A DNA stretch of 64,000 nt, taken from Alphaproteobacteria bacterium CG_4_10_14_0_8_um_filter_37_21 (GTDB lineage Bacteria; Pseudomonadota; Alphaproteobacteria; Paracaedibacterales; UBA11393). The DNA is taken from positions 30,456-94,455 of the forward strand of contig PFNE01000002.1 of assembly GCA_002791835.1 (NCBI GenBank), given 5' to 3'. Shown piece by piece: positions 1,451 to 32,054 of this stretch; the stretch's first letter is position 1; every line of letters starts with the position of its first letter. The notes beneath the pieces were generated by a model. That model was not told the DNA's origin, did no database searches, and was given only the letters and a program-made list of their open reading frames with translations. Both the position numbers and the translations under genes were made by a program.

Positions 1451-1466
1451 TTAAAGGAACCAATTC

Positions 1467-2258: not shown

Positions 2259-2961
2259 ATATTTACTTTGTTTGCTTTTATTAGTGCAACCTGTTGTGTC
2301 AAATTTTAAAGAAGAGCAGGGCGCTGACAAAGGCAGTGTACATGCTGAAGTGCTATCGCTTTTAAATGCTGAAATTTCACAAAAAGTTAATGTTACAGAT
2401 TTTGGTATAAAACTAGATAACTGGACATCATCTTGGGAATCTGACAAAGTTCAATGTTTAAAGTTGAAGGATTTGAAAATTAGCCATAATCAAACACGCT
2501 TTGCTGCACAAATTGATGGTTTTAAAACAACAAAAAGGTTGTTTGGAAAAGTTGAATGGTATATAGACGTACCTGTTTTAAACAGAATGCTTCGCCCAGG
2601 TGAAGAAATTCAGGCAGATGATATCATCCTTCAAAAAATTGAATCACATAAAATAAATGCCTTTCATCTAACAGATGCAGGTCAACTTATAGGCATGATT
2701 GGCCGCCACAGTGTTCTAAAACCTGGTGTACTCTTAACAAAAAGCGACGTTCAGGCGCCAATGGTCGTTAAACGGGGTGCTGTTATGCGGGTTACGCTAA
2801 AAAAGGGTTCTTTAACTGTTAGTAACAAAGGTATTGCCTTAAAAGATGCGGCACGTGATGCAACGATTCCAATAGAAATGATGAACAACAATGGTAAAAA
2901 AGATAAAAAGACAGTATATGCTGTCGTATTATCATCAGAAAACGCAGAAATAAGGTTATGA
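2245..2961 (+). CDS. flgA: Flagellar P-ring assembly chaperone FlgA-like
   Basis: 238 aa with a signal peptide (LLCLLLLVQPVVS). The C-terminal region is FlgA/SAF-like (KRGAVMRVTLKKGSLTVSNKGIALKDA). It overlaps the flgG stop and sits between flgG and flgH, as does Caulobacter flaD. Confidence 0.6.
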   Translation: MQLFKYLLCLLLLVQPVVSNFKEEQGADKGSVHAEVLSLLNAEISQKVNVTDFGIKLDNWTSSWESDKVQCLKLKDLKISHNQTRFAAQIDGFKTTKRLFGKVEWYIDVPVLNRMLRPGEEIQADDIILQKIESHKINAFHLTDAGQLIGMIGRHSVLKPGVLLTKSDVQAPMVVKRGAVMRVTLKKGSLTVSNKGIALKDAARDATIPIEMMNNNGKKDKKTVYAVVLSSENAEIRL

Positions 2962-2965
2962 AATT

Positions 2966-3724
2966 ATGAATATTCATAAAATTAAAACACACATCTTATT
3001 GCTAAGCACATGCTGTCTACTAAGTGGATGTATGGCTGAAAAAATGTCAGAAATTGGCGATGGACCAAAGATAAGTCAAATTCAAAATCCAACTATGGCA
3101 CATGGTTATGCACCGGTAAGCATGCCAATGCCAGCACCATCACAGCCTGAACACCATATTAATTCATTATGGCAAATTGGTTCAAAAGCATTTTTTAAAG
3201 ACCAACGTGCAGGCAAAATTGGAGATATTGTAACCGTTGCTGTGCTGATTGATAACAAGGAATCCACAAGCTTTACGCCTTCAATGTCTAAAGAAACAAA
3301 GACTGATGCAAGCCTTGGTAATTTTTTAGGATTACAGAGCCAGGTAAAACGCATTTTACCGCATAAATTTTCTGATAATTTACCAACAAAGTGGCTTGAT
3401 TCAACCTCAAAACCATCGCATTCAGGAAGTGGCAAATATAATCTTGAAGACAAAATGAAATTCAAAATTTCTGCAACCATTATACAAATTATGCCAAACG
3501 GTAATCTGGTCATACAGGGACACACTGAATTTAAGCTTATGAATGAAGTTAGAGAAGTTGAATTACGCGGTATTATTCGTCGTTCAGATATTCAGTCGAA
3601 TAATTCAATTTCAAGTGATAAAATTGCAGAGCTTCGCATTGTTTATGCAGGACGGGGCGATATTACGGATGTTGCCAATAAGCCTTGGGGTGTTCAGGCA
3701 GTTGAAAAAATAATGCCATTTTAA
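2966..3724 (+). CDS. flgH: Flagellar L-ring lipoprotein FlgH
   Basis: 252 aa with lipobox LLSGC. FlgH core motifs present: SLW...FFKDQRAGKIGDIVTV and GNLVIQG...EVREVELRGIIR. Confidence 0.85.
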   Translation: MNIHKIKTHILLLSTCCLLSGCMAEKMSEIGDGPKISQIQNPTMAHGYAPVSMPMPAPSQPEHHINSLWQIGSKAFFKDQRAGKIGDIVTVAVLIDNKESTSFTPSMSKETKTDASLGNFLGLQSQVKRILPHKFSDNLPTKWLDSTSKPSHSGSGKYNLEDKMKFKISATIIQIMPNGNLVIQGHTEFKLMNEVREVELRGIIRRSDIQSNNSISSDKIAELRIVYAGRGDITDVANKPWGVQAVEKIMPF

Positions 3725-5608: not shown

Positions 5609-5687
5609 AAAACAAACAAATCAACATCATAAAAAATCGTACCTGTTTCTACCACCAAATAGCAAGTTTCTATTTTATATAGAATTT

Positions 5688-6680
5688 CTAAATTAAAGAA
5701 AGGCTTCTTAAAATCCGTTTTAAAAGATCACGACTAGAATTTATCAAAACTTCTTGAACAAGATGAGGGGAGCTTGCGACCCAGCTTGCTGAAAATTCAG
5801 GATGAACACCGGAAAGAACAATATTACCAGCCTCCTGAATAACAACATTTAGACCAGATGCAGTTTCAGCAATCACGGCGGCTTTAGCGTGACCGTCGAA
5901 AGAACACCCCCCATTACAAAACACAGATGATCTTGGCTTACCTGCCTCCTGAATATAGGTTATCGGAAAGGAAACTCCATATTGAGAAAATTGATTTTTT
6001 TCAAACGCCACAAGTGGCCCAGATGCAATTGCTTGTGCTAAGCCAACACCTTCTCTTTCAATACAGATATTTCCTGGCATCGTGAACTTTGAGCTAGAGG
6101 ATAAAAAATATGCCCCCGCCCCAACACCAAGACACTTACCGCCACTAATTGCAAAATTTTTAATTTTTTCTTTCCCTAATGCTGTTAATTTTTCATGAAA
6201 TGGGGTTGCGGCACCACCAGGCATAATAAATAAATCACATCGCGCCACCTGTAGTTCTCCAGCTTGTATATCTGCTGCAGTTACAGGTCGTAAATCAAAA
6301 GTAGCAGAGAGTGCGCCAAATGCACGCTTCCACAGATCAACAGAATTTGGCATAACGCCATCATCATTATATAAGTATACTTTAGTTCGCTGCCTTACAT
6401 CAGCAAGATTAATGACGGGTAAAATATCATCACCCGTTTCGTAGGCATCTTGACGAGAGAGACGCCCAGATAAAAGTTCAGGAGAAAGCCCCTGCTCTTC
6501 TTCGGGTACAAATCTAGTATCATCATCTTTATTTTTATTTTCGCTTATTGATGACCGCTTATTGGCATAGTCAACAGGGCTTATGACAACCCCTAGGTCT
6601 TGGGCACATATACAACCTATCGTTAGAAATGGGGCGAATAAGTGATGTTGTTTTAATGTAAAAAATTTACGCAAACGCAT
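5688..6680 (-). CDS. Putative lipoprotein with a BPL_N / class-I glutamine-amidotransferase-like domain
   Basis: 330 aa. Signal peptide with a lipobox-like LTIGC. The core DLFIMPGGAATPF...ISGGKCLGVGAGAYF resembles the BPL_N pattern PGG...GGxYLGxCAGxY, but the elbow Cys position is Gly. Confidence 0.5.
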   Translation of the reverse strand: MRLRKFFTLKQHHLFAPFLTIGCICAQDLGVVISPVDYANKRSSISENKNKDDDTRFVPEEEQGLSPELLSGRLSRQDAYETGDDILPVINLADVRQRTKVYLYNDDGVMPNSVDLWKRAFGALSATFDLRPVTAADIQAGELQVARCDLFIMPGGAATPFHEKLTALGKEKIKNFAISGGKCLGVGAGAYFLSSSSKFTMPGNICIEREGVGLAQAIASGPLVAFEKNQFSQYGVSFPITYIQEAGKPRSSVFCNGGCSFDGHAKAAVIAETASGLNVVIQEAGNIVLSGVHPEFSASWVASSPHLVQEVLINSSRDLLKRILRSLSLI

Positions 6681-6774: not shown

Positions 6775-7833
6775 CTATGCAGCAACTTCCCGACAAACAA
6801 TATCAACAAAACATGGTTTTTCTAAGGGTTTACCGACTGTTACCCATGAATTATGACCTAAAGAAAATTTTCTATTCAGGCGAAATGGCTTAATATTATA
6901 ACTTTGCACTTTAAACCTGAACTTAATGTTATAGTCTATCCCAACATAAAAAAGCGTTAAATCACGCAATACTTTATAATAAATACCCGTTACAGTATCA
7001 TCATCATTCTTAATTTTTGTTGGCATAAACTGGCTGATTTGTTTCCAGTTCATTGGCCCCATGTCAATGCGAATACCTGCAGATTGGTTCCATACTTTAT
7101 CACCAAGTATGACCTCTGTTCCAAGGGCGTTCATACGCCCTGTACGTTGTCCCAATTTTGTCAGTTCAGAATCTGGTGCACGTTCCCAGGCCCCTTGATA
7201 TTGATGTACCTCAACAGGCATATTAAAATGTGTTGATAACACTTTAACCAAACCATGTGCTGATCTTGGGCGCCGCCATAAAGCATCATGGTAACTTAAA
7301 ATTGTACGATCACTAACATGTACTTTATTACGAAAAGATTCGTTACCCATTCCACAAATACTTAACAAGCATTTTCCAATATGTGTTTGCGTTGGGTCTT
7401 TTTGTGAATATGAAATGAATGTCCGTTTTTTTAAACGATGCCAAATAGAAGCATAACGATGGTTGAATATATCTAGAAAGTCACGAAATCCGTTATCATG
7501 CTGACTGCTGCGCTCCATCAATAATTCTGTATATGGGGTTGGTAAAGGCCCTTGAACACCCGCTATACCCATAAAATTAATCCAAAGAACTGGCTGGGTT
7601 TGATTGGCACCTGGCAATGAAAAACTATGAATTTCAGAACTTGATGGCGACAAAGACACACGTGATTTTATGCATACAGCCTCTTTAGAGGGTGCTATTC
7701 CTTCGCCTAATGGCACGGCATTAGGGGTCATTTGCTGTAATAATTCTACCGCCTGATGAAAATCAAACTGAAAGGTATCTGATTTTAACGTGTCGTTTAT
7801 AGTGAAATTTGTGTTCCTGGCAAGGGCTTCCAT
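6775..7833 (-). CDS. tssG: Type VI secretion baseplate subunit TssG (ImpH/VasB family)
   Basis: 352 aa. The N-terminal F.FDFHQAVELLQ motif and the length fit TssG. It overlaps the tssF 3' end by 37 nt, so the start may be internal. Confidence 0.8.
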   Translation of the reverse strand: MEALARNTNFTINDTLKSDTFQFDFHQAVELLQQMTPNAVPLGEGIAPSKEAVCIKSRVSLSPSSSEIHSFSLPGANQTQPVLWINFMGIAGVQGPLPTPYTELLMERSSQHDNGFRDFLDIFNHRYASIWHRLKKRTFISYSQKDPTQTHIGKCLLSICGMGNESFRNKVHVSDRTILSYHDALWRRPRSAHGLVKVLSTHFNMPVEVHQYQGAWERAPDSELTKLGQRTGRMNALGTEVILGDKVWNQSAGIRIDMGPMNWKQISQFMPTKIKNDDDTVTGIYYKVLRDLTLFYVGIDYNIKFRFKVQSYNIKPFRLNRKFSLGHNSWVTVGKPLEKPCFVDIVCREVAA

Positions 7834-9623
7834 CGCATTATATCCTTTTGACGGTGATCATTTTTTAGTACGACTTCTACGAAAGAATTAATTCCCACGT
7901 GTAAGCCAAAATAGTGGCGCAAAATACAAGCAAGTAAGAACGTTGATCCTCCTGCATTGGTCGCATCATTCATAATTAACGTTACTTCTTGACCGCGAAC
8001 AAAACCACGCCATGCTTCATTATTAACGCGTCTTACAACAGGTTTAACTGAAATGTCTGTAATTGTTTCAATTTCAAAGTGTGACTGTTTTGATCCGCGC
8101 AAATAAAGACGAAGCATTTCGGCAAGCCCTGCAACTGATGCTGGGCCTGAAGTTAAGCCAATATGGTTAACAGAAAGTTGTGAAATTAATTTCCATAAAG
8201 TTTCCCCATCTTCTGGTGAATCTACTTGTGACACAGGTTTGTTTAAACAAACAATTTGTGACACAGGCAAAGCATCTTCTGCCGTTAAGGCGGCATTATA
8301 AGGAAGCTGTTCTGCAAGGTAACGGTTCGTACATAGGGTGTCAGCGTAAATAATTTGCTGGGCTGGTGTTTGCGCTGAAAAATTAATATCGACAAACGAT
8401 AAGTATACGTCACTGCCTGGCAAATCCCTAGCACTTGCGGAAGTACGTTTATGCGTCCAGTATACGGTATCCGGATTCAACATCGTATGATGACTAAAAC
8501 TATAATACGGTGACATTTCAATAGGATCAGCCTCGCCTTCAACTGAGCCTGAAATATTTAAAATAGAATATATTTCCGTCGTTTGATCTAAACGTTGATC
8601 GGGAATCAACCTATACTCTGTTTGTTTTTTATTAAGGCGAAAAGGATCCGTTGATTTTTTAAATAAGTTGACAATTGGCGTTGCCCCCAGTAAAAAATCT
8701 TCTTTTTTTAACTCAATTTCATGGATTGCACCTGGATCATTTATTGGAATATAAAGGTCTAATGTTTCAGATGCTAAATCAACAAGATCAAATGCTTTAA
8801 GTAAATCTTTTATTCTAAAAAAAAGAAATTTTTCGGGAAGATGAAAATATTCCTGAAGCAACTGATAGCTATGAATAGAATGCTCTCCCATGGGAAGAGA
8901 CATTTCATCGGCATCAAAACCAATTGGCTTTAAACTGCCCGCTGGAAGGGCGTGTATATTCTTACCATTGGTGCTAACAAAAGCTTGCTGTTCTGTTCTT
9001 GAAAAAATTAATTGATATAAAAGCAACGCGAGTTTTTTGTCTGCAGCTAAGTGAAAATCCACACTATCCATATGCATGTCTTTAAAATCAACACTGGTAG
9101 ATTTTAACTTTATATGTATAGCCCAATCAGATTGCAAAGGCTGGCCGCAAGCTGATAGTCTATTTGCAGCAACAACAGCAACATGATCAACCTCAATAGG
9201 CCAAAGTGTCACAGGGTAAACAGTTGTAAACGTGCAATCAATCCCCTCCATTGCAGAGGCGTTTAACCTAGTGCCCTTAGGTACTTTAAAGCCTGTTGTT
9301 AAATTTCCACGACTGGGTTCTGCTTGCAAATGTGCAATACCCATTGACGGTACGGGATTGACCAAGTGGGGATATAAAATATTGAGAAGCGCTGACGCTG
9401 TCTGAGGGTGCTGGTCTTCTATTTCTTTTGATATACGGCCACTTAAAAATGCAAAAGATTCAAGTAATCTTTCCACATGTGGATCTGGTGACTCGCTATC
9501 TGAAAGTTCAAGTCTTCTGGCAATTTTTGGATATTGACGCGAAAAATTACGACCTGCATTACGTAAATAATCTAATTCACGATTATAATAATATAAAAGT
9601 TGTTCACGTGATGAATTTGCCAA
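7797..9623 (-). CDS. tssF: Type VI secretion baseplate subunit TssF (ImpG/VasA family)
   Basis: 608 aa. The N-terminus LLYYYNRELDYLRNAGRNFSRQYPKIARRL...PDPHVERLLESFAFLSGRI...LYPHLVNPVPSM is the hallmark TssF signature. Confidence 0.9.
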   Translation of the reverse strand: MANSSREQLLYYYNRELDYLRNAGRNFSRQYPKIARRLELSDSESPDPHVERLLESFAFLSGRISKEIEDQHPQTASALLNILYPHLVNPVPSMGIAHLQAEPSRGNLTTGFKVPKGTRLNASAMEGIDCTFTTVYPVTLWPIEVDHVAVVAANRLSACGQPLQSDWAIHIKLKSTSVDFKDMHMDSVDFHLAADKKLALLLYQLIFSRTEQQAFVSTNGKNIHALPAGSLKPIGFDADEMSLPMGEHSIHSYQLLQEYFHLPEKFLFFRIKDLLKAFDLVDLASETLDLYIPINDPGAIHEIELKKEDFLLGATPIVNLFKKSTDPFRLNKKQTEYRLIPDQRLDQTTEIYSILNISGSVEGEADPIEMSPYYSFSHHTMLNPDTVYWTHKRTSASARDLPGSDVYLSFVDINFSAQTPAQQIIYADTLCTNRYLAEQLPYNAALTAEDALPVSQIVCLNKPVSQVDSPEDGETLWKLISQLSVNHIGLTSGPASVAGLAEMLRLYLRGSKQSHFEIETITDISVKPVVRRVNNEAWRGFVRGQEVTLIMNDATNAGGSTFLLACILRHYFGLHVGINSFVEVVLKNDHRQKDIMRWKPLPGTQISL

Positions 9624-16317: not shown

Positions 16318-16854
16318 TTAAAGTTGATCAATAATGGCTGCCATATTTTCATCTTTTTGTCGACTCCCCTTAGATGATCCAAATTCAAAAGAATATGCAT
16401 CTTTCAAACAAGCACCAAAAATACCAGATATTGTTGAAATTATTGCAACAGCCTCACCGGGTAGGCCTTCTTTTGAAAACAAACATAAAGAACACAAACA
16501 AGTACCTAAACCTAAAACAGCGCTCAAAACCATAATATCTGCCCGGCGATTCGTTCTACCCGTTACAGCAAGTAGCTGAGCGTCACGCTTTCTTGCCTCT
16601 TGCCTATCGTGAATTAAAGACAGTTCAACTTCGGTTTCCATAGCACATAATTCTTTTTGAAATGAACATGCTTTATCTGGGTTATCCCTTAAATGAGAAA
16701 TAATTCCCTGAATATCATCCATTCCTGTTAGTTTTTTAGCTATATCTGTCACACGTGATGCAATTGTCTCTGTTCGATCTCCGCCGAACCATTTCCCAAG
16801 CATGGGTGCAAATTCTACTAACCCCAGGGCAGCTAATGATAATGGAAAAGTCAT
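16318..16854 (-). CDS. Putative holin (3-TM, GTA-release-holin-like)
   Basis: 178 aa. An amphipathic N-terminus, a charged central helix, and 2 clear C-terminal TM segments (IMVLSAVLGLGTCLCSLCLF, AVAIISTISGIFGACL). The tail FEFGSSKGSRQKD resembles the FGSSxGSxxK ending I recall for this holin family. It lies directly downstream of the lysin. Confidence 0.5.
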   Translation of the reverse strand: MTFPLSLAALGLVEFAPMLGKWFGGDRTETIASRVTDIAKKLTGMDDIQGIISHLRDNPDKACSFQKELCAMETEVELSLIHDRQEARKRDAQLLAVTGRTNRRADIMVLSAVLGLGTCLCSLCLFSKEGLPGEAVAIISTISGIFGACLKDAYSFEFGSSKGSRQKDENMAAIIDQL

Positions 16855-16863
16855 AGTAAACTC

Positions 16864-17286
16864 CTATAATTTATAAAATATATGATTGCCAATTTGACAA
16901 GTTGGCCGTTTTTTCACCGTCCACGATGGGAATAATTTTCGGTGATGATAATGATTAGCACCATGCGTAACATCTGCAACCGCATCACCACACACTAAAA
17001 ATTGATCCGCAATTTTTAAACACACATCAAAAACACGACATGTAATGTTTGGTGCTAATAAAATAGCCAAATTTGGATCACCCTTATTCCAGCAAGAAAA
17101 TTGCCAACTTTTAAGGCACACTTCCTTAATAGTTCGTCCATACCAGCTTTGTGCTTTGAATCTGTTGATAATTGTATTGGCAACAGCCTTCAAAGAAGCA
17201 TCGCCAAATTTAGCGACTTCCCCCCTGGCCTCTCCGTATAAAGTGCGGGCAAAAACTTCTTTTTCACTTAAGTTATTAATCGTCAT
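16864..17286 (-). CDS. Cell-wall hydrolase, SleB/Hydrolase_2 family (endolysin)
   Basis: Motifs ARTLYGEARGE, QFSCWN, THGANHYH, PSW and IGNHIFY match SleB-type hydrolases. The likely start is the ATG at 17286 (MTINNLSEKE), which overlaps the upstream ORF stop as ATGACGATTAA. The track ORF extends to 17328. Confidence 0.75.
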   Translation of the reverse strand: MTINNLSEKEVFARTLYGEARGEVAKFGDASLKAVANTIINRFKAQSWYGRTIKEVCLKSWQFSCWNKGDPNLAILLAPNITCRVFDVCLKIADQFLVCGDAVADVTHGANHYHHRKLFPSWTVKKRPTCQIGNHIFYKL

Positions 17287-17773
17287 TTTCAATCTCCCGA
17301 CAGTGAATATGAATAAATCCTGTGGCAATATCTTTGATGAAAAAAGATGAATATTTTTTCATGAAATTATTTTTATTATCAACAAAAAAAGAAAACCCTC
17401 CATTCATTAATTCAACTCCTAGTTGTTTTCCACTTTGACTATTGGAAAGCTTTATGACAGGATTTCCATCAATAAAATCAACAGAAAAATTCCGTTGCCC
17501 CACTTGACACGTACTTTTATCCATGCTATAAGTAGCACCGTAACTCCATAGTGATTGTTCCCCAGCTTTTTGTTGGGGCAATCTTTTTTCCCCAACTTTT
17601 ACAATACCTTTCCTTAAAACATCATAGTTCTTCTCTATTAAAATTTCTGGAATAGCACAATTTCTGACCCAATCTTGGGATTTACCTTCCTCAACAATAA
17701 TATGTTCATAAACAATTTTAATTTTAGACATACACCGCGGTAAATTTAAGGCATCTCGCTTATATAAAGGCAA
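17276..17773 (-). CDS. Hypothetical protein (ORFan), translationally coupled to the lysin gene
   Basis: 165-aa track ORF with a TTG start. The first ATG, at 17731, gives MSKIKIVYEH. No recognisable motif. Its frame is open from 17812 and overlaps the upstream 89-aa ORF in the -1 register. Confidence 0.5.
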   Translation of the reverse strand: MPLYKRDALNLPRCMSKIKIVYEHIIVEEGKSQDWVRNCAIPEILIEKNYDVLRKGIVKVGEKRLPQQKAGEQSLWSYGATYSMDKSTCQVGQRNFSVDFIDGNPVIKLSNSQSGKQLGVELMNGGFSFFVDNKNNFMKKYSSFFIKDIATGFIHIHCREIENDD

Positions 17774-18015
17774 TAAAGTGCCCCCCTTGCATCTACCAAC
17801 ACATCTGGATTCTCATAATATGTTGGCTGAACCCGCGCTTGTATAATAATAATTGGTGGCAAGTCAGAATCATTGTCCGCCATATTAAAATCAAAATCAT
17901 CAGGTGGCCTTAAAGCGTAAGATACATTGTCATCAATATCGCCAGCATCACTTTCAAAAATTTGACCTGCAGATTCCTTTAAAAAAACTTTATTTAATCG
18001 ATTGCGCCAATACAT
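17746..18015 (-). CDS. Hypothetical acidic protein (ORFan)
   Basis: 89 aa with an Asp-rich centre (DAGDIDDN...PPDDFDFNMADNDSD). It begins about 25 nt after a terminator-like hairpin. Its 3' end overlaps the next ORF across a G6 run. Confidence 0.45.
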   Translation of the reverse strand: MYWRNRLNKVFLKESAGQIFESDAGDIDDNVSYALRPPDDFDFNMADNDSDLPPIIIIQARVQPTYYENPDVLVDARGALYCLYISEMP

Positions 18016-18042
18016 GAGTATTTCCTTTCAAAAAATTGATAT

Positions 18043-18071
18043 AAAAAAACCGTTCCAAATTCATGAAGCGG
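18043..18071 (-). terminator. Rho-independent terminator-like hairpin inside the phage-derived locus
   Basis: In the minus sense, CCG(C)TTC-atgaatttg-GAACGG followed by TTTTTTT. It lies about 200 nt downstream of the 372-aa ORF and just upstream of the 89-aa ORF. Confidence 0.5.
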
Positions 18072-18275
18072 ATTTGTTGTGACCAGTGGACTAAATTATT
18101 TAAATACCTCTAACTGTTTATATTAATTGCAGCATCTTCAATATCCTTTAATCCCATCCATACTTTTCCTTTTAAACTTGTGATCGTTATACAGACAAAA
18201 TATTATGCTGTTTATGTATTGAATAATTTGTTAAAAAAATGTTATACGCAGTCTGCTAAGGAAGATAAAAACAAA

Positions 18276-19394
18276 TCAATTCTTAACAATTTCATAATTA
18301 CGGGAAAAAATTTGCTTATTTGTGAGGTCATGTAAGTCTAAATATATTTCAGTTAAATTTTCTTTCAACACATTAACTAAATCTGTTTTAGACGCAAACT
18401 CTCTATTTTGCATGCTTTTTCCTTGTTGGCAGGCAGCATTTCTAACTGAAACACATTTTATTAAATGTTCAGGCTCTATGTGGGTTGTATTCGGTACACC
18501 TGGATCCTGTTTTTCTTCTTTGTTTTTTGCAACCCCCTGAACACTATGTTGCAAACTATTTCTAATATTTTCCAAATTTACAGTCTCTTTTGAAAAATTT
18601 ATCCATAAAGTTGTTTTCGCATGTTCACAATCACAAAAACTTTTCAACCTAGATATTCTACCCTTAATAACCTCTGTTGTACTTTTTGTAAAAGTAACAG
18701 TATCGCCAATTGTATATTTAAGGCTACAAACAAATGGAACGTCCACTTTTAATAGATACGCCTGTCTAGACTGAAACCCCGCATAAATACTTTGCTCTAC
18801 AGCCTGCTGTATGGCTAAATACCCAGTTTTAGTATCAAGAAATGTATCACTTCCGTCAAAAATCACATCTTTTTTAACTTTAAAATCAAATACTTTACAT
18901 GCTTCAGTGCTGTCGGCCTGGAGTAGTGGAACATAATGATCACTTTGCCAACGTAAAAGTATCTCTATTTTTTCTTTCCGCTTATAGGCGCACGACCACT
19001 GAACCCAAAAATGCCCTTTATACTCTTGAACAGGTAAAAAAAATTTTCTGCCCTGAATATTTACAGGAATAGTGTCATTTTTTGTTGTTGAACACCGCAC
19101 CAATTTAGAAGACAAAACCGTATACCCTGTTTTGCGTGCCATTTTTTTGCCCAGTGTTTGCCCAATACTTGGAAAAGAAGCCTTTAATGCATCGCCCGTC
19201 AGACTCAATACACGCCTGTCAGGAAATGCATTTTTAATATAAGGAAATAAATTAATAGCCCCCTGTCCCTTTTGTACCCACATGGCACGTACCACAATTT
19301 TTATTCTATGTAACGGCGCGCGTATTTGCTCAATTGCTGCAGTGTCCATTAAAACGTAGGGTGTTATATCCTTACCCACATCATGGGGCAGCAT
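18276..19394 (-). CDS. Hypothetical protein (372-aa ORFan in phage-derived locus)
   Basis: Long intact ORF 31 nt downstream of the 110-aa ORF. The sequence looks beta-rich. No P-loop, no coiled-coil tape-measure character and no portal motifs are recognisable. Confidence 0.55.
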   Translation of the reverse strand: MLPHDVGKDITPYVLMDTAAIEQIRAPLHRIKIVVRAMWVQKGQGAINLFPYIKNAFPDRRVLSLTGDALKASFPSIGQTLGKKMARKTGYTVLSSKLVRCSTTKNDTIPVNIQGRKFFLPVQEYKGHFWVQWSCAYKRKEKIEILLRWQSDHYVPLLQADSTEACKVFDFKVKKDVIFDGSDTFLDTKTGYLAIQQAVEQSIYAGFQSRQAYLLKVDVPFVCSLKYTIGDTVTFTKSTTEVIKGRISRLKSFCDCEHAKTTLWINFSKETVNLENIRNSLQHSVQGVAKNKEEKQDPGVPNTTHIEPEHLIKCVSVRNAACQQGKSMQNREFASKTDLVNVLKENLTEIYLDLHDLTNKQIFSRNYEIVKN

Positions 19395-19425
19395 AGATAT
19401 ATTTTTACAGTCATGAGAGATAGGG

Positions 19426-19758
19426 TCAACAAAAGGTAACTGCCATTTTTTTTAATTCTATATATTCTAACAACGATTGTTCATGCAGAACCCCGTATTG
19501 TTTATTTAACGCACGCCCAATATACATAAGCTTCATGCAACCAGGCTCTACGTATTCAACGCCACCTAAAAGATGACCTTTAAAAAATACAGTGTTATTA
19601 CAAAGCAGTGTTATAGAACTGGATGTCAGATTTTTCGTTTCACACAACAGCTCAATTTGTGTAAATTCTCCCTCTTGTGTTTTTAGTGTCAGTTTTAATA
19701 TTTTCACTTCCTCTGCAGCGCTCTCCCCCGTTTGTTCAAGTAAGCCTCGTAAATTCAT
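19426..19758 (-). CDS. Hypothetical protein (110-aa ORFan)
   Basis: Intact ORF, first gene of the 110/372-aa pair, transcribed divergently from eamA. No recognisable motif. Confidence 0.45.
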   Translation of the reverse strand: MNLRGLLEQTGESAAEEVKILKLTLKTQEGEFTQIELLCETKNLTSSSITLLCNNTVFFKGHLLGGVEYVEPGCMKLMYIGRALNKQYGVLHEQSLLEYIELKKMAVTFC

Positions 19759-19847
19759 AATTTTCTCGCTTTCATATCCTGGATTTGGTACTATCTAGTG
19801 ATTATATAAGTATTGACAATAAAACGAATCAAGCTGGGTATACATAA

Positions 19848-20801
19848 ATGACAGATACAACAACGACACAACAAGATTCTGTACTGCTGGATAGAATGTA
19901 TACGTTTCTACAAAAAAATCCTTTGTTTAAGTGGTTTTTTAAACCTGGTTATTTACAAGGCGTATTTTGGGCGAACATGATATCCGTTGTTGCCATATCA
20001 AATGATGTTGCTATGCGCTTTCTTGGTGAACGTTTAGATGTTATTGAAATTTCATTTTTTAGGTTTTTCTTTTCAATGATCGTGTTGTTACCCTTTATGC
20101 TTGGCCAAGGCAAAGCACTTTTTCAAACAAAAGTACCTGGTATGCACGCAGCACGTGGTATTGTTGGTGCTGTTGCCATTGCCTTATGCTGCTGGTCTGT
20201 GAATGTTATGCCACTTGCACAAAGCACCAGTCTTATGTTCATGCAACCGCTATTTTTCCTACCTTTAGCTTTTTTCTTTTTAAAAGAACACGTATCAAAA
20301 GAACGCTGGATTGCAACGCTCGTAGGTTTTGCAGGACTTTTGTTTATTATACGCCCTGGAACAAGTGAATTTCATGTTTATAGCTTCATTCCATTAAGTG
20401 CAGCATTTCTGTTTGCAACACTTGATGTTTTAGCAAAAAAAATGGTTGCCAATGAAAAAACGCTAACGCTTTTATTTTATTTTGGCTTCGTAACAAGCTT
20501 AATATCACTACCCTTTGTATTTTCAGTATGGCAAATGCCAACACAATCAGAATTTTGTTATTTAATACTACTTGGTATTGGTGGAAACTTAATACAGGTA
20601 TGCTTGTTCTTAGCTTTTTCAGCCACAGAAGCATCTGCTCTAGCGCCTTTTAGATATGGCGAATTTATTGTTGCAGGATTATTTGGTTACTTATTTTTCT
20701 CTCAAGTACCAACAACGACACTACTGATTGGGTCAAGTATTATTATTGCATCAGCTTTTTATCTATCTCATAAAGAAATTCAAATGGCAAAACAGAAGTA
20801 G
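19848..20801 (+). CDS. EamA/DMT-family transporter
   Basis: 317 aa with about 10 predicted TM helices and the two-EamA-repeat architecture typical of drug/metabolite transporters. Confidence 0.75.
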   Translation: MTDTTTTQQDSVLLDRMYTFLQKNPLFKWFFKPGYLQGVFWANMISVVAISNDVAMRFLGERLDVIEISFFRFFFSMIVLLPFMLGQGKALFQTKVPGMHAARGIVGAVAIALCCWSVNVMPLAQSTSLMFMQPLFFLPLAFFFLKEHVSKERWIATLVGFAGLLFIIRPGTSEFHVYSFIPLSAAFLFATLDVLAKKMVANEKTLTLLFYFGFVTSLISLPFVFSVWQMPTQSEFCYLILLGIGGNLIQVCLFLAFSATEASALAPFRYGEFIVAGLFGYLFFSQVPTTTLLIGSSIIIASAFYLSHKEIQMAKQK

Positions 20802-20945
20802 TCACCCTCCTATACTTTAAAGTGCATCTCCAACAGTGGCTGCATATTTAATGACCAGCTAAAAAAATCTTAATATATTTAAGAACCTAAAAAGCTGATA
20901 TTAAGTTACCTGTTTTTTAAAATATAGCTCAATACTGTTCATGCC

Positions 20946-21455
20946 TTAAATTTCATTTAAATGAAGGGTCCACTCATTTTCCATGGACCATTCTTTTGTT
21001 TTTAATGAAAAATCAGTTATACGCATGTCTAAATAAGGGCGATACGTTACAAAAAAATCCCGATCACGACTTAGTCGTATAGATTTATCAATTGTTATTT
21101 TCCTGCCCAATTGTGAGAAAGGCAGATTATTTTGATCACTATCTATAACGGCAACAGATCCAGATACATCCTGTCTACTTATTGTATGAATACCGTTTTC
21201 TATCTTCTCCCAAAGGCGTTGAATACAACCAACTCGCACCACAGATCCTGGGCTGAAATTATCAACCGCTAAAACACTTTTATCTTTTGCCTCAATTATT
21301 GTTTTGTATTTTAACGCCTTTGGCCCAAGATGCAGCAGCTCACCATTTACTGTACGTGCCATTTGTCCTAATTGAATTGGTTTTAAAGTCTGTACGCAAC
21401 CACGTGCAGAAAAAGGAGGCAACCCCCCTGTGCTAAATGTTAAAACTGTTTCCAC
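20946..21455 (-). CDS. Hypothetical protein at the tail-tube position of the head-neck module
   Basis: 169 aa. GTG start preceded by a strong SD (GAGGGGG). It follows the DUF3168-like gene in the same orientation. I see no similarity to TP901-1/lambda-V type tube proteins. Confidence 0.5.
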   Translation of the reverse strand: METVLTFSTGGLPPFSARGCVQTLKPIQLGQMARTVNGELLHLGPKALKYKTIIEAKDKSVLAVDNFSPGSVVRVGCIQRLWEKIENGIHTISRQDVSGSVAVIDSDQNNLPFSQLGRKITIDKSIRLSRDRDFFVTYRPYLDMRITDFSLKTKEWSMENEWTLHLNEI

Positions 21456-21465
21456 TAAATCCCCC

Positions 21466-21579
21466 TCAATACCAAAAAGGTAAAGGCGCTATTAATAGCG
21501 TTTCCCTCTGTGTTAAATATTGATCAAAAAAAAGGGCTAGATCATCTGGATCTAACCCTTGTATTATATTATTTTTCAT
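21466..21579 (-). CDS. Possible 37-aa micro-ORF
   Basis: Own translation: MKNNIIQGLDPDDLALFFDQYLTQRETLLIAPLPFWY. Its TGA stop overlaps the SD of the 169-aa ORF, which suggests coupling. It is below the ORF-track size cutoff. Confidence 0.3.
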   Translation of the reverse strand: MKNNIIQGLDPDDLALFFDQYLTQRETLLIAPLPFWY

Positions 21580-21661
21580 AATTTACCTATTTAATCGAAG
21601 TGCCAAGTAACTTACCCTGACAAATATCCTCTTTTACGCTTCGCCATGGGTTCTTCTCCCT

Positions 21662-22066
21662 TTATCCACGAACAAGAACTTCATAATAGTCTTCAACCAA
21701 ACGTGGTGTATTTTGTTTAGGTAAATCTATCACACTATTTGACAAGCGAATTGTTGCACGCATACCGTCTTTTACAATAATTGTTTTACCATCCATTAAT
21801 TTCTTAATATCATCAGCAGTATTAAGATTTTTATTATTGGTAGGGGTGTTACTAATAACGGATGTTTTTATTTTTAATCGTGCATGCCCACAATCAGTCC
21901 CTAATTTTAAGGAAGTCCAAATTTCTTCTAGCTCTAATAAAACTGCAGGTGGTTCAGTTTCAGGTGGGTATGCAAGATGAATTTTTTCTTTTAAGCCGTG
22001 CCTAATAATACTTTCATCTTCTGTTAATAAAGTCCTTATTGCGGACAAGACGCCGTAATCAGCCAT
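21662..22066 (-). CDS. DUF3168-like protein (tail-terminator / g8 position)
   Basis: Likely start is the ATG at 22066 (MADYGVLSAIRTLL...) with a GGAGA SD 7 nt upstream. The track start at 22126 would overlap the adaptor gene. At about 134 aa, its size, position and N-terminal pattern fit DUF3168/gpU-position proteins. Confidence 0.45.
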   Translation of the reverse strand: MADYGVLSAIRTLLTEDESIIRHGLKEKIHLAYPPETEPPAVLLELEEIWTSLKLGTDCGHARLKIKTSVISNTPTNNKNLNTADDIKKLMDGKTIIVKDGMRATIRLSNSVIDLPKQNTPRLVEDYYEVLVRG

Positions 22067-22085
22067 TGTGTATCTCCATAGTGAC

Positions 22086-22451
22086 CTAACATTCAAACCC
22101 CAGGGTTTCGACCCATTTTCCATCAAACGATGGGGTGAATGGGGCGGCTAGTTTTATCAATTTACTATTAAACCTTAGCCCGAATAGAGTTGCTTGTAAA
22201 GCATCTCTGTTATAATAATTTCGCATAGCTATTTTGTACCACTTCTTGGGGAACGATTTGTCTAGTAAATTCCACTCATCCAAGCTCGCAGATTGTGCAA
22301 TTTTTCGCCCCATCATATTTACAGGCTTTATCCTTGCCCAATATGAATTTCCAGGTATTTTCTTTTCTGAAAATTCACCATTTTTATCCTCTTTTATTTT
22401 CCTAAAAATCAACTGAATTCGTGTGCGCATTTCGCCAATTTTATCGCTCAT
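22086..22451 (-). CDS. Phage head-tail adaptor / head-closure protein (SPP1 gp16 / Phage_H_T_join-like)
   Basis: 121 aa. The pattern MRTRIQL...YWARIKPVN...WYKIAMRNYY matches the LR.RI...WA.I.P...Y.I.IRY signature. ATGA overlap with the connector gene. Confidence 0.6.
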   Translation of the reverse strand: MSDKIGEMRTRIQLIFRKIKEDKNGEFSEKKIPGNSYWARIKPVNMMGRKIAQSASLDEWNLLDKSFPKKWYKIAMRNYYNRDALQATLFGLRFNSKLIKLAAPFTPSFDGKWVETLGFEC

Positions 22452-22999
22452 AAAATATCCTTTACGCGGTAAGGCTCGAGTAAATCGTTATAAAAATTTG
22501 ATTTTTTTATGGGTTCTCCGCCCCTATTTTCATATAATTCAGCAACAATTTGTAAAAGTGCATGCTTAATGGGTGCTGGAATATGTTTTGGATATATACC
22601 AAAACCAGCCTGATAAACAACTTCAACAAGTTGATCAGATGTTACTAACGTTAAAAGTGGACTATTATCCGTATCTACCAACTGGTAGCGTCGCACTGCG
22701 TAACGTGCAGATCCACTTCTTATATTTGTTACAGAATGTACGTGCAAAATATTTGGTCTGGGTAATTTTATTTCTGAAAAACCACCTTTTACGGCTTTAG
22801 GCTCACTTGTAAAAGAAAGTTTTTGTGTTAATAATGCCCTATTTAAATAACGTTCTATATATTCCGTTGCCGTTTCAATCAAATGCAACAAATATTGATC
22901 TTCCTCAGCGTGCTCTAATCGTAAATGCACCTTAACATCTTCCAATGTCACAGGATAAATTTCTGCTTTTTCAAGAATTTTTAACATGAATAACTCCAT
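22448..22999 (-). CDS. Phage gp6-like head-tail connector protein
   Basis: 183 aa. The N-terminus VTLEDVKVHLRLEHAEEDQYLLHLIETATEYIERYLNRALLTQ is the classic gp6-like (Phage_connect_1) motif. Confidence 0.7.
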   Translation of the reverse strand: MELFMLKILEKAEIYPVTLEDVKVHLRLEHAEEDQYLLHLIETATEYIERYLNRALLTQKLSFTSEPKAVKGGFSEIKLPRPNILHVHSVTNIRSGSARYAVRRYQLVDTDNSPLLTLVTSDQLVEVVYQAGFGIYPKHIPAPIKHALLQIVAELYENRGGEPIKKSNFYNDLLEPYRVKDIL

Positions 23000-23050
23000 A
23001 GTGATTTTTATAGCCCTGTAAGTAAATACAGGGCGAAATAATTTTGTTAA

Positions 23051-24142
23051 TTATTCTGAAAATTGAAGAACTTTAATTGCATTACAATCAACCACAGCGC
23101 CACCAACACGCTTTGTTGCATAGAATTCAACAAACGGTTTTGCACTATAGGGGTCGCGAAGTAAACTCACTTCACGGCGGTCAACAATTTGGTACCCCAG
23201 CTTAAAGTTTCCAAATAGTATTGGCGTTGATACCTCGCCAGATCGCACTTGATCCAGGGCATCGTTTAATACGACTGGAAAGCCTAACAATGTGTGTGAC
23301 ATACCATCACTTAATGATGGTTGTAGCAAATAACGGCGCGATTCGTCTTTTAATCCGCGAAGCATAGATAATGCTGATCGTGACATCATCCAACAAGCAC
23401 CCGGTAAAAAGTCACATCTCAGTGCATCAACAACTGCCAATAAGGCATCTGCATTTTTAATAGATCCATTGACTCCAGTTTTAATCATTTGCAAATGATC
23501 ATCTGATACTTCTTCAGATAAGGGGTAAGCAAGAATCCCTTTTGGCTTCTTCTCACCGTCACCTTTAATAAATGCCCTATTTTCTGTCATACTCATGGAT
23601 TCAGAAATTTTACAGCCAATCCATTCTTCTAAATTTACACTTGAATCGTCCAAAATTTTTTGGCTAGCGCGTGGCTTTGCATATAATTCATGAGTATGGA
23701 TCTGAATTTTTTTAAGCTCCGGCAAGTCTGTCTCTTGTCGGTCATCCATCTCAGCTGCCCAACCAACGTTAGCCTCTCCCTTATCCACCAATAATTCATA
23801 GGAATCAGAAGATACTTCTGTAACACTTGCTATCGAACGTAGAGAACTTCCCAATTTTAATTGGCTATGAATATTTTCAACCACAAAATTTGGTACCGTA
23901 TATTCGCCGCCATTGTTTTGTGTTGATAACGCCTTTTGCCCCACCCCTTTTGTTAAAAAAGATCTAAAATCGGCACTTTTTTCCTGTGTTTCAAAACTAT
24001 CTGCGGCACAAGGCATTGTAATGGCTGATCTTGTTGCATACAGTTGGTTCATTTTTCGCTCACTTTCTTGTGTAAATTGTGTAAATGTATTTTCTAAATT
24101 CTTTACAGAATTTTCCATATTTATTAATGTTGTTTCTTCCAT
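23051..24142 (-). CDS. Phage major capsid protein, HK97 family
   Basis: 363 aa. N-terminal coiled-coil delta-like region, then GGEYTVPNFV, LRSIASV, WAAEMDD, ELYAKPRASQKILDDS, TENRAFIKGDGEKKPKGIL and a C-terminal GGAVV. Directly follows the prohead protease. Confidence 0.85.
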   Translation of the reverse strand: MEETTLINMENSVKNLENTFTQFTQESERKMNQLYATRSAITMPCAADSFETQEKSADFRSFLTKGVGQKALSTQNNGGEYTVPNFVVENIHSQLKLGSSLRSIASVTEVSSDSYELLVDKGEANVGWAAEMDDRQETDLPELKKIQIHTHELYAKPRASQKILDDSSVNLEEWIGCKISESMSMTENRAFIKGDGEKKPKGILAYPLSEEVSDDHLQMIKTGVNGSIKNADALLAVVDALRCDFLPGACWMMSRSALSMLRGLKDESRRYLLQPSLSDGMSHTLLGFPVVLNDALDQVRSGEVSTPILFGNFKLGYQIVDRREVSLLRDPYSAKPFVEFYATKRVGGAVVDCNAIKVLQFSE

Positions 24143-24150
24143 AAATTCTC

Positions 24151-24696
24151 CTAATATAAAATTGTTGATGTTGCAACGGTTCTTGCCAAATGCTCCAAAG
24201 TATCTTGTAAATTTTGCAGTCGTTTTTTAATATTGATTAAACTTTTAACGCTCACGACTTTCGCTTTTTCATTAGCAGCAAAAGTTACCAACGAAATTTC
24301 TAACAAGTCTACTTCTGTTAAAAACTTAACCTTTTTACTATCATCAAAATAGCTATTAATAGGGTTATAGCCAATCGAAAGGCCTTCAATAACGCCTGCC
24401 TTTAAAAAAGCATAAGCTTCTTGTGCTTGTGGTACTTCCATTAATAAGCGGCCCTTCACATACAAGCCGTAAGCATCTTCCCTTGCTTCTTCCCATACAC
24501 CAATGGGTTTGTTTTGGTTGTGCTGCCAAAGCATCTTAAGCCCCTGAACAGGCCTTGAAGTTAGACTATTGGCAAAAGCACCTTTTTTAACACTATCTCC
24601 ATGATGATCCAAAAAATTAAAGACACTAGCATACCCCTCAAAAGTTCCATCTTCAGATAGATTTTTAATGCATAGTTTATGTGTTTTCGTTTGCAT
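24151..24696 (-). CDS. HK97-family phage prohead protease
   Basis: 181 aa. FEGYASVFNFLDHHGDSVKKGAF...MLWQHNQNKPIGVWEEAREDAYGLYVKGRL matches the prohead protease family pattern. SD AGGGAGG upstream. Confidence 0.85.
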   Translation of the reverse strand: MQTKTHKLCIKNLSEDGTFEGYASVFNFLDHHGDSVKKGAFANSLTSRPVQGLKMLWQHNQNKPIGVWEEAREDAYGLYVKGRLLMEVPQAQEAYAFLKAGVIEGLSIGYNPINSYFDDSKKVKFLTEVDLLEISLVTFAANEKAKVVSVKSLINIKKRLQNLQDTLEHLARTVATSTILY

Positions 24697-24716
24697 AAAC
24701 GCCTCCCTTTAGATAT

Positions 24717-24752
24717 AAAAAAACCCCTTTGGAACATATATCCCAAGGGGTT
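24717..24752 (-). terminator. Strong rho-independent terminator of the OMP gene, abutting the prohead-protease RBS
   Basis: Hairpin AACCCCTTTGG-aacatatat-CCCAAGGGGTT with 10 of 11 bp paired. A run of 7 T follows on the minus strand, and a T-rich tract on the plus strand makes bidirectional function possible. The T run ends about 7 nt before the protease SD. Confidence 0.75.
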
Positions 24753-24864
24753 TATTTTATTATTAAGGCTCCAGAAATATTAACGTTTAACCGCCAACAT
24801 TTCTGTCACTATAATCAAGGTAAATCTTATTCATGCAAAAAGCAAAGATTCATCTCCCAAAAAA

Positions 24865-30758: not shown

Positions 30759-32054
30759 ATGTATAAACAAAATATTTTACTCTCTCTAATTTTTGTACTT
30801 TGTGTCAACTTCTTAAATGGTGAAATTCTAACGCCCCGCAAAAAAGATAAAGCGTTAAAGCAACCAACACAAACAATAAAGCATCAAGATCCGCTGAACA
30901 AAAGTTCATCAAAATGTATAAATCCTCAATATCCTAAACATAAAAAATTTGGAAAAGATTTTGTAAGCCCACTTCCACTTGAAAAAATTCAAATTGATTC
31001 CCAATCCTGGAAACAACAACATAATTCTGATTGTGTTTTTACAAATGACAATATTCAAGATCAGTTCCAAAGTGATATAGGAATATGGCTCAATACTCTT
31101 TTCAATAGAACGAATACTGTTGGGGGGAAAAAATTAAGTAACAAGGAACAGTATATTCTTATCAAAAAACAAGAGTTTTTAAGAAGATGGTTTTTGTTGA
31201 TGGCCTATGCCCCTATTCATTATGTAAGAAGTGATAACGCATCATCTGAAAATTCAAATTCATTAAGCTTTCAAAGACCTGTGCATTTTCCATTTCCTTT
31301 AGCGTCATCCATAAGTCATGGGCAACGCATACTCATGACTCTGACGAATAAATCAGGAACCAGCAAACTAAATAAATTAATGTACAATCTTCTTCTTTCT
31401 GGTGCGGTAGATCAGAAACCCGTTATAGACGAATTCAGAAGTTTTGCAAGTCATGGTGTTTCAAAAGCTCCAAATAACAAGTTGATAGAAGAAAAATTAC
31501 TAACAGGTTTTTTAGGGGCAATTCGGGGTAATCATCATATGATAAATATACCCGTTGGTGGCGTTGGGAACAAAAATGAATTAAATTATTTTATTGGCCC
31601 TGAGGGAGAAAGTTATACGAAAGACGATGACAAAAGAGTTGATAACTTTCAACTTGGACATGTATTTATTGCAGAACACAGTTTTTCTGATAATATTTCA
31701 TCATTACTTATGGGTGTTGAAAGCACGGCACCATATAAAACTTCACCCTTTTCAGAGGGCGAAAAGACGCATACCATAATTAGTGGTTATGAAGATGAAT
31801 CTAAAACGAGAGCCGTTCTTGGCGGACAAAAATGGTCTAAACTTCTAGGGGACTTAGCCCCTGCTAAATATGGTGGAATGCTCATTAATATTGAAGATAG
31901 TCAACTAGAAGAACTTAAAGCATTGTTTGATATTATTCTTTCCTGGGATGAGAAAAAGCAATTTGTTTTTTTTCTTAAACTTATATCCATGAACGCATCA
32001 GAAGCTAATAATTTTTTATTTACTCATAAAGAACTTTCTTCAATATTTTTATAA
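30759..32054 (+). CDS. Hypothetical secreted protein (ORFan)
   Basis: 431 aa with an N-terminal signal-like segment (ILLSLIFVLCVNFLNG). No recognisable catalytic motif. Flanked by long AT-rich non-coding DNA on both sides. Confidence 0.6.
   Translation: MYKQNILLSLIFVLCVNFLNGEILTPRKKDKALKQPTQTIKHQDPLNKSSSKCINPQYPKHKKFGKDFVSPLPLEKIQIDSQSWKQQHNSDCVFTNDNIQDQFQSDIGIWLNTLFNRTNTVGGKKLSNKEQYILIKKQEFLRRWFLLMAYAPIHYVRSDNASSENSNSLSFQRPVHFPFPLASSISHGQRILMTLTNKSGTSKLNKLMYNLLLSGAVDQKPVIDEFRSFASHGVSKAPNNKLIEEKLLTGFLGAIRGNHHMINIPVGGVGNKNELNYFIGPEGESYTKDDDKRVDNFQLGHVFIAEHSFSDNISSLLMGVESTAPYKTSPFSEGEKTHTIISGYEDESKTRAVLGGQKWSKLLGDLAPAKYGGMLINIEDSQLEELKALFDIILSWDEKKQFVFFLKLISMNASEANNFLFTHKELSSIFL

Follow-up and report, generated by a model that had tools for sequence, protein, structure and literature searches.

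A Holosporales gene cluster that probably encodes a domesticated phage-like particle, with its portal gene at a second locus

What kind of element is a block of phage head and neck genes that stands, together with a pair of lysis genes and beside neither a portal nor a terminase gene, in the DNA of Alphaproteobacteria bacterium CG_4_10_14_0_8_um_filter_37_21? The block occupies positions 16318 to 24696 of a 64-kb stretch, here called the window, which is bases 30501-94500 of the ENA metagenome contig k141_481033 (assembly ERZ27293407). The metagenome-assembled genome (MAG) comes from Crystal Geyser, and the window proteins are found at NCBI under locus tags COY39_ (PIZ34302 and PIZ34313). An initial annotation, made from the sequence of the window, read the locus either as a domesticated particle system, similar to a gene transfer agent (GTA) or to a capsid shell that lacks a portal, or as one part of a split system. 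Our analysis brings two of these ideas together. The locus is probably the principal cluster of structural and lysis genes for a domesticated phage-like particle of the lineage of the Rhodobacter capsulatus gene transfer agent (RcGTA), that is, a reduced GTA-like cluster inherited across the Holosporales, from which the portal gene has been relocated. Deep synteny and purifying selection speak for a domesticated system of this type and not for a fresh prophage, and an intact portal on another contig of the same assembly speaks for the split.

We start with the head and neck genes. Five tightly packed minus-strand open reading frames (ORFs), running from 24696 to 21662, follow the order protease, capsid, adaptor, stopper and terminator, which is the order of genes g4 to g8 of RcGTA (Table 1). 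The best match of the capsid protein in the PDB is the RcGTA capsid Rcc01687 (6tb9, 6tba), with an E-value (E) of 1.2e-54 over residues 11-362, almost its full length, while its closest named homologues belong to Holosporales MAGs. For the protease, the capsid and the gp6-like connector, the Pfam and TIGR matches are unambiguous and agree with the initial annotation. The next two genes are a more delicate matter. The protein at 22451-22086, first proposed as a head-tail adaptor, begins with a start codon that overlaps the adaptor stop (ATGA); its position fits the proposal, and the genes at the same position in two related loci (L008 and L009) carry PF05521, but its own match to Phage_HCP is below threshold. 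The protein at 22066-21662, first proposed as DUF3168-like, has no match of its own, but its orthologue in another related locus (L004, 65% identical) matches PF11367, formerly DUF3168, with E 0.018. The assignments of g7 and g8 are weak when taken alone and become probable with the support of position and of the L008/L009 orthologues. The terminator-like gene is also the most conserved of the block, with 96% identity to its counterpart in L002.

Do the genes beyond the neck belong to the same unit? The initial annotation treated the downstream ORFs and the EamA transporter gene as unrelated to the module. A comparison of about 170 related loci (labels L002-L176), on which the cluster proteins were placed by tblastn, gives a different answer: these genes are conserved parts of a cluster of 10-11 kb that is present in dozens of Holosporales genomes. 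The ancestral order begins with the portal, followed by the protease, capsid, adaptor, stopper, the terminator-like gene, a micro-ORF and a gene for a protein with a tail-tube fold; it continues with an antisense EamA gene, a hub-like protein of 500-630 amino acids (aa), a protein of 220-310 aa, a fibre-like protein, a Hydrolase_2 protein and a membrane protein of 178 aa (p178). The portal-first order is found in Candidatus (Ca.) Paracaedibacter symbiosus (L034), Ca. Odyssella thessalonicensis (L043), Finniella, Caedimonas (L026), Nucleicultricaceae (L042) and dozens of MAGs, and it is kept across lineages with capsids that are 35-50% identical. Between the window lineage and L009, with capsids 41% identical, blastp supports orthology for the large protein (494, 616, 633 aa), the lysin and p178. 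Judged from its gene order, the window locus is this Holosporales cluster minus the portal and the fibre-like gene.

The initial annotation had proposed a comparison of synteny and of dN/dS, the ratio of nonsynonymous to synonymous substitution rates, with related genomes. Gene order is kept, and the ratios of the head-neck genes fall between 0.03 and 0.10 (approximate values, see Table 1). The hub-like gene and a gene for a 246-aa protein are frameshifted in the window. In the strength of purifying selection the head-neck genes match clpX and fumC.

Table 1. Features of the cluster and its leader in the window, in the order of the gene strand, followed by three housekeeping genes. dN/dS was obtained by the Nei-Gojobori method for the window against L002; dS is 0.7-2.2 and partly saturated, so that the values are approximate.
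Feature	Position	Strand	Evidence or elements	dN/dS
Leader 5' of the protease gene	24717..24864	-	motif TTTTTTGGGAGATGAATCTTTGC 24842-24864; hairpin 24772-24805; terminator-like hairpin and U7 24717-24753	
HK97-family prohead serine protease (RcGTA g4 equivalent)	24151..24696	-	PF04586 E 1e-31; TIGR01543 E 4e-37; phrog_80 E 2e-51	0.10
HK97-fold major capsid protein (g5 equivalent)	23051..24142	-	PF05065 E 1e-71; TIGR01554 E 5e-87	0.08
gp6-like head-tail adaptor/connector (g6 equivalent)	22448..22999	-	PF05135 E 7e-14; TIGR02215 E 2e-17; adaptor families phrog_442 and phrog_40	0.05
Probable head-completion/stopper protein, 121 aa (g7 equivalent)	22086..22451	-	Phage_HCP E 7e-4, below the Pfam cut-off	0.09
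Probable tail terminator/tail-completion protein, 134 aa (g8/DUF3168-like)	21662..22066	-	no match of its own; L004 orthologue matches PF11367	0.03
Conserved 37-aa micro-ORF, C-terminus ...APLPFWY	21466..21579	-	peptide kept in L002 and L004	
Tail-tube-fold protein, 169 aa (candidate tube, g9 equivalent)	20946..21455	-	structure matches; no Pfam model	0.16
EamA-family transporter, conserved passenger within the cluster	19848..20801	+	PF00892 E 2e-26	0.06
Probable baseplate hub/tail-tip protein, split into 110 aa (19426-19758) and 372 aa (18276-19394)	18276..19758	-	hub-like model matches	0.21-0.24
Cluster protein (246 aa in relatives), split into 89 aa and about 151-165 aa	17276..18015	-	tblastn of the L002 246-aa protein, two frames	0.27-0.33
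SleB-type cell-wall hydrolase (Hydrolase_2), endolysin of the terminal pair	16864..17286	-	PF07486 E 1e-16; endolysin families phrog_938 and phrog_15649	0.09
178-aa membrane protein (p178), holin-like lysin partner	16318..16854	-	phrog_1544 E 4e-17, full length	0.04
clpX (housekeeping)				0.04
fumC (housekeeping)				0.07
ftsZ (housekeeping)				0.12

A prophage, intact or recently decayed, was considered and rejected. Pfam scans of the window find no integrase, repressor or replication gene, and no direct repeats like att sites are seen at the locus, where only short chance repeats are present, so this part of the initial annotation is borne out. The GC content is 0.35-0.38 across the locus, like that of its flanks, and the composition is uniform and without a break. 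The ordered presence across the Holosporales also speaks against such an origin.

Where, then, is the portal? In canonical relatives it lies directly 5' of the protease gene. In the window clade (the window, L002/L003 and L092) and in the next clade (L004/L005, with a capsid 50% identical), no portal is found at that place. As initially reported, the locus has neither portal nor terminase, and the absence extends over the whole 64-kb window (searched by tblastn with a portal from the Holosporales and by Pfam on the large ORFs that remained) and 10 kb past each of its ends. A GTDB portal scan bypassed the window lineage, in which the portal reads NEHY against NDWY in the first search motif. A scan of metagenomes recovered a lone portal with a GC content of 0.37 (L148), and this relative led to the portal of the MAG itself, an intact protein of 400 aa (PF04860) encoded as a singlet on contig k141_186789 (56 kb, GC 0.362) of the same assembly as the window. 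The protein is present at NCBI as PIZ34197.1, 'phage portal protein', under the name of the same organism, and it falls within the 90% cluster of L148. The relocated gene is flanked by cellular genes only, and its neighbours have no phage-family, Pfam or PHROG match. Between the two portals, which are 94% identical, dN is 0.034 and dS is 0.594, giving a dN/dS of 0.057. The portal appears to have left the cluster in the window lineage and to survive intact elsewhere in the genome, which would make the system split and not portal-less.

This finding bears directly on the idea of a capsid shell without a portal, a compartment resembling encapsulins and equipped with a release module of its own. 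The initial annotation had entertained such a shell from the lack of a portal at the locus, a lack that now extends to 84 kb. The intact and selected portal on another contig, preceded by the same leader as the protease gene, is difficult to reconcile with a shell of this kind; so are the conserved protease and three neck proteins, which have no role without a portal, and the place of the portal directly 5' of the block in canonical relatives. We give the portal-less shell next to no credence. An encapsulin nanocompartment proper was rejected for the presence of the protease, adaptor, stopper and terminator and of a portal elsewhere in the genome.

The leader that the two loci share is the second thread that joins them. 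About 170 nt 5' of the protease gene and 5' of the relocated portal gene are mutually alignable. Both leaders open with TTTTTTGGGAGA(A/T)GA(A/T)T..CTT, continue with hairpins, and close with a terminator-like hairpin and U7-8 that lies 25-55 nt before the start codon; the ribosome-binding site and ATG of the protease gene are at 24694-24710. The leader motif occurs once in the 64-kb window, where 0.06 occurrences are expected, and once in the 18-kb portal locus (L175). The motif and the layout are also found 5' of the protease in L002 and L003 (in variant form in L004 and L005) and 5' of the portal in L176 and L148, and the motif precedes essentially none of the approximately 150 canonical portals. 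Since the gene 5' of the relocated portal is divergent, the leader hairpin there is not the terminator of a preceding gene. We infer from these alignments that the two loci are co-regulated, possibly via read-through of the leader terminator. If this is true, a domesticated element would be under antitermination-type late control as in lambdoid phages. With the portal and the head block both intact behind the same leader, the leader would be a regulatory element, and its motif (TTTTTGGGAGAWRAWTYYTT) a handle for finding the remaining parts such as the terminase.

Several other searches for regulatory signals were made. An Rfam scan of the portal locus gives no match, 7-mer enrichment finds no motif common to all lineages, and no full CtrA box (TTAA-N7-TTAA) lies 5' of the three promoter regions. 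A general attenuator at portals was tried and rejected: terminator-like hairpins stand 5' of 24% of portals against 3% of random windows, which is the level that intergenic DNA gives.

The window lineage is not the only one with a rearranged cluster. In Ca. Caedibacter acanthamoebae and Caedibacter MAGs (L016, L017, L024), and also in L114, L117 and L119, portal and protease are adjacent and no capsid is found within 10 kb; the Caedibacter cluster is split at another point than that of the window lineage. L046 and L068 are rearranged, and L084 and L086 are lone portals. In L008 (1934-6340, on the same contig as L029), L032, L045 and L106, insertions of 3-6 kb separate the protease from the capsid, and that of L008 carries three ORFs of about 200 aa that are paralogues (57% and about 26% identical) and have no family assignment. 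IS66-family elements (TnpB_IS66, DDE_Tnp_IS66) are found near the relocated portal (L175 16965-17312) and near the cluster copy of L002 (311-2357), and they are a possible agent of the rearrangements.

We turn our attention to the genes that follow the neck, among which the initial annotation saw no recognisable tube or tail gene. The first is a micro-ORF, whose counterparts measure 40-43 aa in L008 and L009 and 35-43 aa across canonical clusters. Its coding sequence contains a hairpin of 12 pairs followed by T8 (21526-21560), which resembles an intrinsic terminator placed after the neck genes and before the gene for the 169-aa protein. The family of the latter is Holosporales-wide, with 68 homologues of 157-174 aa that all lack annotation, and a profile of the family finds no match in the PDB by sequence. 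Its AlphaFold2 model, built from an alignment of 45 sequences, has a predicted local distance difference test score (pLDDT) of 87.6, and the Foldseek matches of this model in the PDB and BFVD are nearly all tail tube, stopper, distal-tail and baseplate-tube initiator proteins. These matches reach an E of 1.6e-4 with template modelling (TM) scores of only 0.3-0.5, and an RcGTA virion chain is among the weak ones (E 0.55). Judged from the model, the 169-aa protein is probably a tube-fold protein and a candidate, not a proven, g9.

The EamA gene was correctly placed on the opposite strand in the initial annotation. Its position is a property of the cluster: of 70 loci, 59 carry it antisense as the immediate successor of the tube-fold gene and none has it on the same strand, and the hub-like gene comes after it in all 53 of 53 loci. 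The dN/dS of this passenger indicates strong purifying selection.

The hub-like gene is unbroken in relatives, where it encodes 494 aa (L002 and L003) or 616-633 aa (L008 and L009). Clustering at 50% gives 98 representatives of the family, the sole Pfam domain of which is CBM_5_12, present in 16 of 71 members; a sequence profile of the 71 members has no match in the PDB. A model built from nine aligned sequences is poor overall (pLDDT 38.7), with the first 85 residues near 70. Its matches are mostly hub proteins, led by diffocin (8v3w_H, E 2e-4) and Mu gp44 (probability 0.99 over 88 columns) and including monocin tip proteins, MuSo2 and hubs of contractile injection systems. These weak matches suggest that the 494-aa family may be a hub or tail-tip protein. 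Neither the 246-aa protein nor the micro-ORF has a Pfam or PHROG match. Between the protein of 250-300 aa and the lysin, most canonical clusters (L009 14362-14937, L008 14507-14896 and about 40 others) encode a small fibre-like protein with weak matches to tail-fibre PHROGs (E 1e-4) and a faint CBM_5_12 signal; it is absent in the window clade.

All ORFs of the locus were first described as open, which does not hold for two of them. The hub-like gene is broken by one additional base in an A8 run (19443-19455) that is A7 or shorter in relatives. The halves of the 246-aa gene, ORFs 17746-18015 and 17276-17773, are separated by extra bases in a G run (17778-17790). The 372-aa fragment of the hub-like protein is identical in the NCBI annotation of the MAG, so that the hub-like break is not a one-off assembly error. 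In the window strain the distal tail may not work, may vary by phase, or may be restored through slippage. Being confined to distal-tail genes in the window, the frameshifts could report dispensable functions.

Is the locus then simply a decaying remnant of an ancient prophage or GTA, which makes nothing and is slowly being lost? The two homopolymer frameshifts of the window, further ones in L092 that include one in the capsid gene, the detached portal, the terminase and tape measure that were not found, and the lack of particles in the study of George et al. would all fit a remnant. The pattern of selection does not: the head-neck genes, the lysin and p178 have dN/dS values of 0.03-0.10, equal to those of housekeeping genes, the detached portal is intact with a ratio of 0.06, and the gene order is kept across lineages with 35-50% capsid identity. 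Both frameshifts of the window, moreover, fall in its two fastest-evolving genes. In L092, the closest relative for which DNA is available, every lesion is the loss of one base from a homopolymer, and the sequence is a Logan contig from a single run (SRR14574973); these lesions are either decay or sequencing errors. The terminator-like, tube-fold, EamA and p178 genes of L092 are intact. We consider it quite improbable that the locus is a remnant, and we keep the reading of a domesticated particle cluster with a relocated portal.

How would such a particle leave the cell? At the end of the cluster a SleB-type lysin and a membrane protein adjoin clpX, placed as in the initial annotation. The membrane protein had been described as a holin with three transmembrane segments. 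We find one clear and one or two weaker hydrophobic helices, a match to phrog_1544 and the adjacent lysin, but no match to the Pfam holin families, including PF11351 (GTA_holin_3TM), by hmmscan with E up to 10. Homologues of p178 are present in 187 phage records, and the context was read in two of them, Polaromonas phage Tiera and one Vibrio phage. In both, the homologue comes directly after a peptidoglycan hydrolase, which is a 'secretion activator protein' in Tiera and an amidase in the Vibrio phage. From its transmembrane segments and the adjacency to a lysin in two phages, p178 may act as a holin. The pair of lysin and p178 closes the cluster in at least 28 loci. At the lysin position L008 carries a Phage_lysozyme gene preceded by two small transmembrane proteins, a non-orthologous set. 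A different lysin at one position, and the same membrane partner beside different lysins, argue that this is a true lysis cassette selected within the cluster. The phage cassettes of Tiera and the Vibrio phage share with it a peptidoglycan hydrolase followed by a phrog_1544 membrane protein; the hydrolase differs, being Hydrolase_2 in the window and a 'secretion activator' or amidase in the phages, and the holin activity of phrog_1544 members is putative. The conserved set beyond the adaptor, namely a candidate tube, a candidate hub and the lysis pair, argues for whole released particles and not for bare shells.

Combining these parts, we can outline how the particle might be made and released. 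The homologous 170-nt leaders would switch both loci on together, the motif and built-in terminator pointing to control of the antitermination type or by attenuation. An HK97-type prohead would be built on the portal from the capsid protein and the protease, after which the adaptor, stopper and terminator would close the portal and connect it to a short tube and hub, for which no tape-measure gene is seen. As neither a tape measure nor a chaperone has a candidate gene, any tail would have to be short or differently constructed. The Hydrolase_2 and membrane-protein pair would lyse the producer cell and release the particle. The cargo might be host DNA taken at random, as it is in RcGTA, or of another kind. 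In its fullest form this outline would have the Holosporales carry a complete unconventional machine of the GTA type, with a head, a neck, a stub tail without tape measure (a ring of the tube-fold protein, a hub and a fibre), a lysis pair of its own and a fixed antisense EamA gene, split here into at least two loci that the leaders make one regulon. We put this forward tentatively, as a conjecture with rather less than even chances.

The search suggested by the initial annotation found the portal elsewhere (k141_186789) and no terminase in the approximately 100 kb of the genome that was covered, comprising the 64-kb window, 20 kb of extensions and the 18-kb portal locus. ORF families that recur beside about 80 portals were examined as terminase candidates and rejected as cellular (MFS transporters, a DEAD-box helicase, aminotransferases). 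A functional but repurposed particle deserves consideration, in which the capsid and neck are kept, for example, for the delivery of protein or other cargo or for storage inside a eukaryotic host, while the tail and packaging parts are reduced or lost. The idea was raised for endosymbiont GTAs by George et al.; with it agree the lack of a terminase at either locus and of a tape measure, the tail-side genes that evolve faster (0.16-0.33) and are the ones that break, and an EamA exporter gene conserved within the cluster. However, conservation is strongest in the portal, adaptor, stopper and terminator, which DNA packaging and the attachment of a tail require, the lysis pair inside the cluster fits release by lysis as in RcGTA, and singlet terminases exist in Holosporaceae genomes (George et al., PMC9254644). 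We regard repurposing as unlikely, while keeping it in view.

Some observations weigh against a domesticated RcGTA-type cluster with a relocated portal. The attribution of both contigs to one genome uses the MAG name (which is incomplete for the window proteins), neighbouring accessions, GC content and the shared leader, and the genome is not closed. No terminase, large or small, no tape measure and no chaperone turned up in the approximately 100 kb searched or beside any of about 160 portals. At the level of sequence nothing similar to RcGTA g11-g15 was seen, and there is no match to a tail family of RcGTA or to a PDB chain; both the tube-fold and the hub reading are drawn from weak structure matches (TM 0.3-0.5; hub pLDDT 38.7). 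Two cluster genes of the window, the hub-like and the 246-aa gene, are frameshifted at homopolymer runs, and in L092 1-bp homopolymer deletions are found in the capsid (321-1411), stopper (2007-2371) and hub-like (4586-6066) genes. The dS between the window and L002 is partly saturated at 0.7-2.2. Finally, no particles were seen by transmission electron microscopy in Holosporaceae endosymbionts (George et al. 2022, PMC9254644).

How does the cluster compare with systems that are already known? The closest are the reduced GTAs of the Holosporaceae and Rickettsiales. George et al. 2022 (Genome Biol Evol, PMC9254644) described GTA capsid and portal genes in endosymbionts of these groups, with undetectable tails, stopper and terminator genes in one Holosporaceae clade, and a terminase encoded away from the cluster. 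They found dN/dS below 1, lowest in Holosporaceae, and detected transcripts; genes flanked on their 5' side by the adaptor were not assigned a function and might be divergent tail genes (PMC9254644). As cited in that paper, earlier works on the subject include Lang & Beatty 2007, Shakya et al. 2017 and Christensen & Serbus 2020. The window locus shares with these systems the retained head-neck genes of RcGTA type, the purifying selection, the lack of prophage genes and the unassigned genes 3' of the adaptor. It differs from the published Holosporaceae clusters in that their portal is in the main cluster, whereas in the window genome it is a singlet at another locus. With retained head and portal genes and undetectable tails already described (PMC9254644), the pattern is less novel than the initial annotation assumed; the basic picture is in the literature, and our findings extend a known system and do not define a new kind. 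What goes beyond the main text of George et al. is the conserved downstream set (antisense EamA, tube-fold, hub-like and fibre-like genes), the lysis genes in the cluster, the portal relocation and the shared leader. The cluster bears on the question why alphaproteobacteria that are obligate or host-associated retain phage-capsid genes, and select strongly for them, while their genomes shrink (George et al. 2022).

The comparison with RcGTA itself (Rhodobacter capsulatus, g1-g15; 6tb9, 6tba, 6tsu) gives a homologous capsid (E 1e-54) and the same order of protease, capsid, adaptor, stopper, terminator and tube. Both systems are without replication, integration and repressor genes and keep their cluster at a fixed chromosomal place. 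Unlike RcGTA, the window cluster, which encodes a putative particle, has no adjacent TerS/TerL, no chaperones, no tape measure and no g12-g15 detectable by sequence, and it holds endolysin and holin-like genes, an embedded antisense transporter and a relocated portal. The lysis genes of RcGTA lie away from its structural cluster.

An HK97-like siphophage prophage module resembles the locus in its Peptidase_S78, Phage_capsid, gp6-like connector and head completion protein and in the tight, overlapping packing of the genes. In contrast to such a module, the window has no integrase, att site, repressor or replication gene, no terminase stands beside the portal, the GC content equals that of the host, and the genes show deep conservation with dN/dS at the level of housekeeping genes.

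Some smaller features remain to be described. A repeat of 15-19 nt, TAACTCCATAGTGAT on the plus strand and ...CACTATGGAGTTA on the gene strand, is present in three copies (17540-17559, 22070-22084 and 22990-23009); one lies across the start codon of the adaptor gene, one just 5' of the start of the 134-aa gene and one within the 246-aa gene. The repeat could be due to chance or to a shared translation-initiation context. On the 5' side of the protease gene are a gene for a protein like outer-membrane proteins and tRNA-Phe. Elsewhere in the window (698-3724 and 6775-9623) are flagellar rod and ring genes (FlgF/G-like, FlgA, FlgH) together with the type VI secretion genes TssG and TssF, from which it follows that the organism does not belong among the highly reduced endosymbionts. 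A protein of 431 aa, encoded on the plus strand at 30759-32054 with fumC on one side and a Bax1-I gene on the other, has the toxin domain Ntox11 (E 8e-7) as its only match.

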